Source: Escherichia coli
Lineage (GTDB): Bacteria > Pseudomonadota > Gammaproteobacteria > Enterobacterales > Enterobacteriaceae
Strand: one strand, 5' to 3'
NCBI RefSeq assembly: GCF_045037415.1
Contig: NZ_CP173438.1
Length of the DNA: 64,000 nucleotides
In this document: positions 36,321-36,905 of the stretch, in pieces
Layout: every line of letters begins with the position of its first letter
Numbering within the stretch: the first letter of the stretch is position 1
Program-made: the position numbers and the translations under genes
Notes under the pieces: model-generated
The model's input: the letters and a program-made list of their open reading frames with translations, nothing else
Told to the model about the DNA's origin: nothing
The model's database searches: none

Positions 36321-36533
36321 GAAAATACCTTAGTGGGTAAACGCTTACATTCTTTCAGTGTTACGGAAAACGCCCGTTGGTTCAAGGGGCGGCGTGTTTT
36401 CATTGTGGGAATGTGAGCCAAACGCAAATAAGTAAGACAAAAAAAGAGATTGCAAACCTTTGGTTACACTTTGCGAAACGCTGTTGCGATTGACCGCTGG
36501 TGGCGTTTGGCTTCAGGTTGCTAAAGTGGTGAT

Positions 36534-36615
36534 CCCAGAGGTATTGATAGGTGAAGTCAACTTCGGGTTGAGCACATGAATTACACCAGCCTGCGCAGAT
36601 GCGCAGGTTTTTTTT
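36534..36615 (+). ncRNA. omrB: OmrB small regulatory RNA (Hfq-dependent, OmpR-controlled)
   Basis: CCCAGAGGTATTGATAGGTGAAGTCAACTTCGGG...CCTGCGCAGATGCGCAGG plus T9 terminator. Confidence 0.9.
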
Positions 36616-36730
36616 TGCCGGTCATCAATCTGTAACAGTAACCGACAATTTACACACCTCGTTGCATTTCCCTTCATTCCTTTGCGTTTTCTCGCTGGCG
36701 AAGAGTCGTCGTGCAGACCACAATCAAGAT

Positions 36731-36818
36731 CCCAGAGGTATTGATTGGTGAGATTATTCGGTACGCTCTTCGTACCCTGTCTCTTGCACCAACCTGCGCG
36801 GATGCGCAGGTTTTTTTT
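36731..36818 (+). ncRNA. omrA: OmrA small regulatory RNA (paralogue of OmrB)
   Basis: CCCAGAGGTATTGATTGGTGAGATTATTCGG...CCTGCGCGGATGCGCAGG plus T8 terminator; same 5' and 3' ends as OmrB. Confidence 0.9.
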
Positions 36819-36905
36819 CGCACCTAATTTACTGTCGCTCGCGTTCTTTATCTCGTGTAATCTCCCTCCATTCGCTTTTACTGAATCAGAGCAAAGGGAG
36901 TTGGA

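Follow-up and report, generated by a model that had tools for sequence, protein, structure and literature searches.

The region considered here, positions 36321-36905 of a 64,000-nucleotide stretch of DNA from an Escherichia coli chromosome (the window), is the whole intergenic region between galR and aas as delimited by their open reading frames. It is 585 bp long and extends from the galR ATG on the minus strand (36320) to the aas ATG (36906). The genes of the locus are the following.

35289-36320, minus strand: galR coding sequence, 343 aa, the neighbour to the left, divergently transcribed (open reading frame; galR is annotated in an identical RefSeq record and in K-12)
36534-36616, plus strand: OmrB sRNA (RF00079, 86.1 bits; K-12 b4445), 82 nt according to Rfam and K-12, that is, to 36615, with a ninth T at 36616
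36731-36818, plus strand: OmrA sRNA, 88 nt (RF00079, 96.6 bits; K-12 b4444, identical in sequence)
36906-39065, plus strand: aas coding sequence, 719 aa, the neighbour to the right, in the same orientation as the sRNAs (open reading frame; annotated in the RefSeq record and in K-12)

In a covariance-model search, both sRNA units match the OmrA-B family of Rfam over the full length of the model (positions 1-87 of 87), with E-values of 6.4e-18 for OmrA and 2.3e-15 for OmrB and with scores more than twice the curated gathering threshold of 40 bits. A sequence-only reading of this DNA had proposed that OmrB and OmrA lie in this order between galR and aas, and had named such a search as a way to check it. 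The search bears this out, and the proposal is also upheld by the K-12 annotation at homologous coordinates and by the identity of the mature sequences. In the K-12 MG1655 record, omrA (88 nt; formerly RygA/SraE) and omrB (82 nt; formerly RygB) are annotated at the corresponding positions between aas and galR, in the same order and orientation, and the placement between galR and aas with transcription toward aas is that of OmrA-B.

The galR-aas region differs from that of K-12 MG1655 at three of about 620 positions. Two of the differences are substitutions (36390 and 36404) in the galR-proximal spacer, outside the -114 to +50 promoter fragments that have been used in vitro, and the third is one additional T in the T-run of OmrB (36608-36616; nine T here, eight in K-12); the mature RNAs are otherwise identical. 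E. albertii and several loci of Citrobacter and Enterobacter also have runs of nine T, and the additional T is therefore taken as ordinary length variation. An 801-nt query over the region matches many complete E. coli chromosomes at 100% identity, and of 5426 complete genomes 5423 contain the region.

Some further observations on the records and the spacer may be given here. The RefSeq record NZ_AP018784.2, which was annotated by PGAP and is 100% identical to the region, has no omrA or omrB features, although the K-12 record has them; scans that rely on the annotation of such PGAP E. coli records therefore see the 585-bp spacer as empty. A plasmid-borne OmrA/B was considered and rejected, because the two 'plasmid' places returned in the E. 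coli search lie in records of 0.7-4.9 Mb, which are mislabelled chromosomes or chromosome-sized replicons. The PLSDB records NZ_OL790696.1, NZ_CP134663.1, and NZ_CP141089.1, which include the omrBA region, measure 4.8-4.9 Mb and are likewise chromosomes mislabelled as plasmids. A stretch of the galR-omrB spacer that resembles a hairpin (36360-36410) was also set aside, as it folds no better than shuffled sequences (z of -1.1 and -1.2 on the two strands). The only tRNA gene of the window, a tRNA-Gly (anticodon CCC) at 25453-25526, is also its only other Rfam match.

The two units are related to each other in a segmented manner. A repeat search finds the 5' repeat GATCCCAGAGGTATTGAT[A/T]GGTGA at 36531-36554 and 36728-36751 (24 nt, 96% identity, 197 nt apart) and the 3' repeat TT[A/G]CACCA[G/A]CCTGCGC[A/G]GATGCGCAGG, followed by the T-run, at 36581-36618 and 36784-36821 (38 nt, 89% identity). 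Within the RNAs, the first 21 nt match at 20 positions and the last 35 nt at 32, while the centres, of 26 nt in OmrB and 32 nt in OmrA, share just 14 bases. Upstream of the units the resemblance is weak: the 100 nt preceding omrB and omrA match at 61 positions, as compared with 55.7 ± 2.7 for shuffled sequences. Both RNAs carry the conserved OmrA-B 5' end, CCCAGAGGUAUUGAU(N)GGUGA. The near-identical 5' ends and the differing centres described in the sequence-only reading are thus found where it had put them, but its description of the terminator hairpins as identical has to be relaxed: the hairpins are present in both units and are nearly identical, differing in the first base of the loop and in the base 5' of the stem. 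Its view that the pair arose by a local duplication with conserved seed and terminator agrees with these segment identities, with the tandem arrangement in 21 other Enterobacterales loci, and with the published view (PMC12692685).

Folding of the two RNAs gives -26.6 kcal/mol (z -3.1 against dinucleotide shuffles) for OmrB and -29.5 kcal/mol (z -2.7) for OmrA. Each is predicted to form a central stem-loop and a terminator hairpin, with the 5' end of OmrA left free in the predicted fold. The terminators are as follows.

36588-36616, plus strand: Rho-independent terminator of OmrB, with an 8-9 bp stem, the loop AGAT, and 9 T (terminator-like site; covariation)
36791-36818, plus strand: Rho-independent terminator of OmrA, with an 8-9 bp stem, the loop GGAT, and 8 T (terminator-like site; covariation)

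To follow these elements across species, one genome per species was scanned with the 15-nt seed, and 120 stretches of DNA were returned. Genuine units were defined by the presence of the seed, GGTG, and a terminator, which leaves about 49 loci, all in Enterobacterales species; among the genera represented are Escherichia, Citrobacter, Enterobacter, Kosakonia, Kluyvera, Serratia, Dickeya, Pectobacterium, Edwardsiella, Pantoea, Erwinia, Tatumella, and Rahnella. The other matches to the 15-mer, about 70 in unrelated phyla, have neither GGTG nor a terminator and were left out as chance matches. The units from these loci of other Enterobacterales species, together with the two of the window, make up an alignment of 63 distinct units.

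In this alignment the terminator helix of OmrA-B is paired in 99.8% of the cells, and three of its eight base pairs show compensatory double changes (U-A to C-G, G-C to A-U, and C-G to U-A). When the helix was slid along the alignment as a control, at most 56% of the cells were paired, and only one control showed a double change, a single one. The sequence TT.CACC before the terminator is invariant over the 63 units, and the corresponding UU(A/G)CACC element is present in both RNAs here. Tandem pairs with a spacing of 188-275 nt occur in the 21 other loci mentioned above, and in most loci with enough flanking sequence the units lie between homologues of galR and aas.

A further question is whether small proteins, or an antisense transcript, are encoded by the conserved sequence in place of non-coding RNAs. 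Several short open reading frames of 30-78 aa do overlap the region mechanically, the candidates being one of 54 aa at 36513-36677 on the minus strand and one of 50 aa at 36599-36751 on the plus strand. The pattern of conservation, however, is not codon-wise. The homologous units, which vary between 72 and 110 nt in length, fall evenly into the three classes modulo 3 (20/20/23), with no triplet periodicity; the centres are exchanged for unrelated stem-loops between genera; and conservation is concentrated in the terminator, with compensatory changes at the RNA level, and in the 21-nt 5' end, where the cross-species invariance of nt 1-20 is in part by construction, since the loci were retrieved with that 15-mer and GGTG. 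Such coding or antisense function is considered extremely improbable, and non-coding sRNAs remain the preferred explanation.

The arrangement at the locus also bears on the possibility that the two units form a cis-acting leader or attenuator of the aas-lplT operon, with read-through from the omr promoters controlling aas. In its favour, the sRNAs run in the same direction as aas, and no more than 87 nt separate the end of the OmrA terminator from the aas ATG. Nevertheless, both units end in strong terminators (GC-rich stems of 8-9 bp followed by 8-9 T) that are maintained by covariation, and what is conserved is the 5' seed, a sequence with complementarity to unlinked mRNAs (ompR, for example). 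In a Pantoea locus, the upstream copy is not beside aas, an open reading frame of 579 aa being interposed between the copies. The literature, moreover, describes individual transcription units that act in trans (PMC13425233, PMC2588501). A leader function is therefore regarded as very improbable, if slightly less so than a coding one, and separate trans-acting sRNAs are the reading retained below.

Several loci depart from the usual arrangement. In Pantoea stewartii (L031 2747-4879) and in a Pantoea MAG (L060 647-2770), the Omr copies are separated by about 2.04 kb, where about 200 bp is usual. The open reading frame of 579 aa between them (L031 2936-4675, plus strand) has STVK and KTGT motifs, by which it resembles a class B penicillin-binding protein. 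In several species only one copy is present, for example in Enterobacter sp. BIGb0383 (L028 8766-8853), whose unit appears chimeric: nt 16 is an A, like that of OmrB, and the central stem, GGTACG...CGTACC, is like that of OmrA; the unit agrees with the 'chimaera' described in PMC13425233. At four loci from two Citrobacter and two Enterobacter (L013, L059, L061, and L115), the best GalR-like match near the sRNAs has 34-37% identity, and another gene of the LacI family, or a displaced galR, may lie upstream there.

Each sRNA gene has its own promoter. For omrB, the elements below are numbered from the start site (+1) at 36534.

36452-36471, plus strand: OmpR box of omrB ('box B2') GCAAACCTTTGGTTACACTT, -82 to -63; published mutations map inside it, and its limits are inferred from the position of the Yersinia box
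36481-36492, plus strand: second conserved block of the omrB promoter, CTGTTGCGATTG, -53 to -42, strongly conserved in 18 omrB-type promoters
36522-36527, plus strand: -10 hexamer of omrB, TAAAGT, with T at -12

The double substitution T-75C and A-68G in box B2 of PomrB reduces activation by plasmid-borne OmpR from 81-fold to 3.3-fold and abolishes activation by multicopy RstAB (PMC13425233, 2026 NAR). These two positions correspond in the window to T36459 (-75) and A36466 (-68; the A of GGTTACAC); the published bases fit those of the window, which confirms the assignment of the omrB start site. The sequence-only reading had pointed to stretches containing GTTACA or GTAACA upstream of the two units as possible OmpR boxes. 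For omrB this was correct, as GTTACA at 36463-36468 (-71 to -66) lies inside the box that carries the two mutated positions, and TTACA and then TTTGC are invariant in all 18 of the omrB-type promoters aligned. The block CTGTTGCGATTG is probably the 'box B1' of PMC13425233. A perfect 10-nt inverted repeat, AGCCAAACGC/GCGTTTGGCT (36416-36425 and 36503-36512), flanks the omrB promoter; it is not kept in other genera and is probably due to chance.

For omrA, with +1 at 36731, the elements are as follows.

36630-36638, plus strand: conserved block CTGTAACAG, -101 to -93, mostly conserved in 19 omrA-type promoters; contains GTAACA
36649-36668, plus strand: probable OmpR box of omrA, TTTACACACCTCGTTGCATT, -82 to -63, which aligns with the omrB box and has the position of the Yersinia OmpR box
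36719-36724, plus strand: -10 hexamer of omrA, CACAAT, of the sigma-S type, with C at -12 (36719) and at -13 (36718)

Here the sequence-only reading stood in one part and not in the other. Control of omrA by OmpR is supported by activation in vitro (PMC5175337), but the motif it had singled out, GTAACA at 36632-36637 (-99 to -94), is probably one block too far upstream. The OmpR box of omrA is probably TTTACACACCTCGTTGCATT at 36649-36668, to judge from its sequence, the exact contact bases within it being inferred. It comprises the half-sites TTTACAC (36649) and GTTGCAT (36661), 12 bp apart from start to start, and its GTTGCA(T/C)TT is conserved in the 19 omrA-type promoters. In Yersinia, an OmpR box at -82 to -63, aligned to the E. 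coli boxes, lies on a fragment that binds phosphorylated OmpR (PMC10342277). The 19 promoters keep four elements, namely CTGTAACAG, ACACCT(C/G)GTT(G/T)CA(T/C)TT (-79 to -62, over the box), TCATTCC.TTGCGTTTTC (-56 to -39), and the -10 element CCACAATCAA; several conserved regions of PomrA have been reported (PMC13425233).

Phosphorylated OmpR activates both promoters in vitro on templates extending from -114 to +50 (PMC5175337, which contains no description of a binding site or footprint), and the -114 to +50 sequences of both promoters in the window are identical to those of K-12. The two promoters differ at position -12, where the C of omrA, as opposed to the T of omrB, is the published determinant that makes omrA, and not omrB, dependent on sigma-S (PMC12692685). 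A scan for generic sigma-70 promoters over 36200-37000 picked up neither sRNA promoter. This is attributable to their poor -35 elements and to their dependence on activators, and the scan is consequently uninformative.

The promoters are also relevant to the question of whether only one of the copies is functional, the other being a decaying duplicate. That several species have a single copy or a chimera (PMC13425233) would be in keeping with such decay. On the other hand, the Rfam scores of both copies lie far above the threshold, both promoters are intact and their copy-specific blocks are conserved across genera, and in K-12 both RNAs have been detected and are activated by OmpR, with differing sigma-factor dependence (PMC5175337, PMC12692685). 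Decay of one copy is considered about as improbable as a coding function, and even taken together the three alternatives discussed here have only a very small probability. It is almost certain, then, that the region carries the paralogous sRNA genes omrB and omrA, each with its own promoter and Rho-independent terminator, transcribed in the direction from galR to aas. In E. coli this is an already known and ordinary finding, OmrA and OmrB having been characterised since 2001-2006 and reviewed in 2025. The locus resembles that of K-12 also in the T-75 and A-68 of the OmpR box, the -12T of omrB, the -12C of omrA, and the terminators.

At the other end of the spacer lies a site for GalR, which has a counterpart inside galR.

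36335-36350, minus strand: O_E(galR), ATGTAAGCGTTTACCC on the galR strand, 15-30 nt upstream of the galR ATG, identical to the published operator (PMC5110547)
36074-36089, plus strand: O_I(galR), GTTCGACCGCTTTCAC, inside the galR coding sequence (pattern match), identical to K-12 2976830-2976845 (PMC5110547, Table 1)

The sequence GTGGGTAAACGCTTACAT occupies 36333-36350, 13 to 30 nt upstream of the galR ATG. Within it, GGGTAAACGCTTACAT at 36335-36350 matches GTGNAANCGNTTNCAC, the 16-bp hyphenated dyad of the GalR/GalS operator, at 14 of 16 positions; the mismatches are at positions 2 and 16, and G3, A5, G9, and A15, at the positions described as critical (3, 5, 9, and 15; PMC5110547), are retained. 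A search of the whole window with the GalR consensus gave four matches with at most two mismatches, as compared with 3.35 expected, and the four include both published galR operators, O_E and O_I. The statistics of the sequence thus lend the operator no support by themselves, and the matter is settled by the published operator table and ChIP-chip data. O_E(galR) corresponds to K-12 2976569-2976584, and a GalR ChIP-chip peak, 'omrB/galR', is listed at K-12 2976577 with a score of 21.2, the inferred site GGGTAAACGCTTACA, and 3C contacts (PMC5110547). The GalR-operator-like sequence noticed just upstream of the galR start is the reverse complement of this O_E(galR), and it does not differ from the operators of the gal regulon (O_E/O_I of galE, galP, galS, mglB, and galR), being one of them. 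GalR would be expected to regulate its own gene through O_E beside the galR start, and O_E and O_I of galR, which are 261 bp apart, could form a loop by analogy with galE.

As to function, OmrA and OmrB repress, by Hfq-dependent base-pairing, mRNAs for the outer membrane, motility, and biofilms, as well as ompR itself. Their published targets include ompT, cirA, fecA, and fepA; among those reported later are csgD, flhDC, dgcM, btuB, flgM, and metabolic genes (PMC12692685). In K-12, they are discrete Hfq-bound transcripts of about 82 and 88 nt (PMC2588501, PMC12692685). Pairing of the 5' end near the initiation regions of ompT, cirA, and ompR has been proved by compensatory mutations in vivo, repression requires Hfq and RNase E, and mutation of the seed ends the control of every target tested (PMC2588501). 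In the window, nt 1-9 of the seed are complementary to ACCTTTGGG, at -19 to -11 of K-12 ompR and adjoining the Shine-Dalgarno sequence. The predicted duplex has -16.9 to -19.0 kcal/mol, as compared with -10.7 ± 2.4 for shuffled seeds, of which 11 in 500 reach -16.9. In K-12, an antisense RNA, AsompR (b4842), is annotated over the 5' region of ompR (L124, 3536438-3536775), which includes the seed site at -19 to -11.

The transcripts, their targets, and their dependence on OmpR, sigma-S, Hfq, and RNase E are carried over to the window from the literature on the near-identical K-12 locus, and the following scheme is to be read accordingly. Phosphorylated OmpR would bind about 60-80 bp upstream of the start sites and activate the transcription of both genes. 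The omrA gene would depend additionally on sigma-S through its -12C, while omrB would use sigma-70 and be boosted by multicopy RstA. The single-stranded 5' ends (nt 1-21), together with Hfq, would pair with the translation-initiation regions of many mRNAs, and this pairing would block translation and lead to RNase E-dependent decay of the target mRNA. Pairing with the leader of ompR-envZ would place the activator itself under negative feedback, a loop that follows from the activation of omrA and omrB by OmpR and the repression of ompR-envZ by the sRNAs (PMC5175337). The divergent centres would give each sibling some private targets.

Comparison with other small RNAs shows which of these features are shared. 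MicF and MicC, which are also OmpR-activated and Hfq-dependent, resemble OmrA/B in having a 5' or near-5' seed directed to the initiation regions of outer-membrane protein mRNAs, a Rho-independent terminator that serves as the Hfq handle, and input from EnvZ-OmpR. In contrast to OmrA/B, however, they are unrelated in sequence, lie at other loci, and are single-copy, and feedback on ompR is found in OmrA/B only. Other sets of sibling sRNAs that arose by local duplication are likewise paralogues in tandem or close together, whose seed and terminator are conserved, whose promoters or centres have diverged, and whose targets overlap; these belong to different families and have different regulators. 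Paralogous sRNAs of this kind are discussed in PMC13425233.

There remain the copy-specific promoter blocks. The CTGTAACAG block of omrA and the CTGTTGCGATTG block of omrB are kept across genera and are accounted for neither by the OmpR box nor by the -10/-35 elements. They might be the sites of regulators yet to be found, each giving one sibling a private input; this is put forward tentatively and is, on balance, rather doubtful. The regulator of box B1 has already been raised as an open question (PMC13425233).

The findings are of use in two respects. The first is calibration: both sRNAs, their order, their regulator, and the neighbouring operator had been named correctly from the raw sequence alone. 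The second concerns the promoters, as the mapped blocks provide coordinates for anyone seeking sibling-specific regulators, which the literature still lacks. Sites for such regulators, if they are real, would extend the known biology of these sRNAs rather than open a new kind of it.
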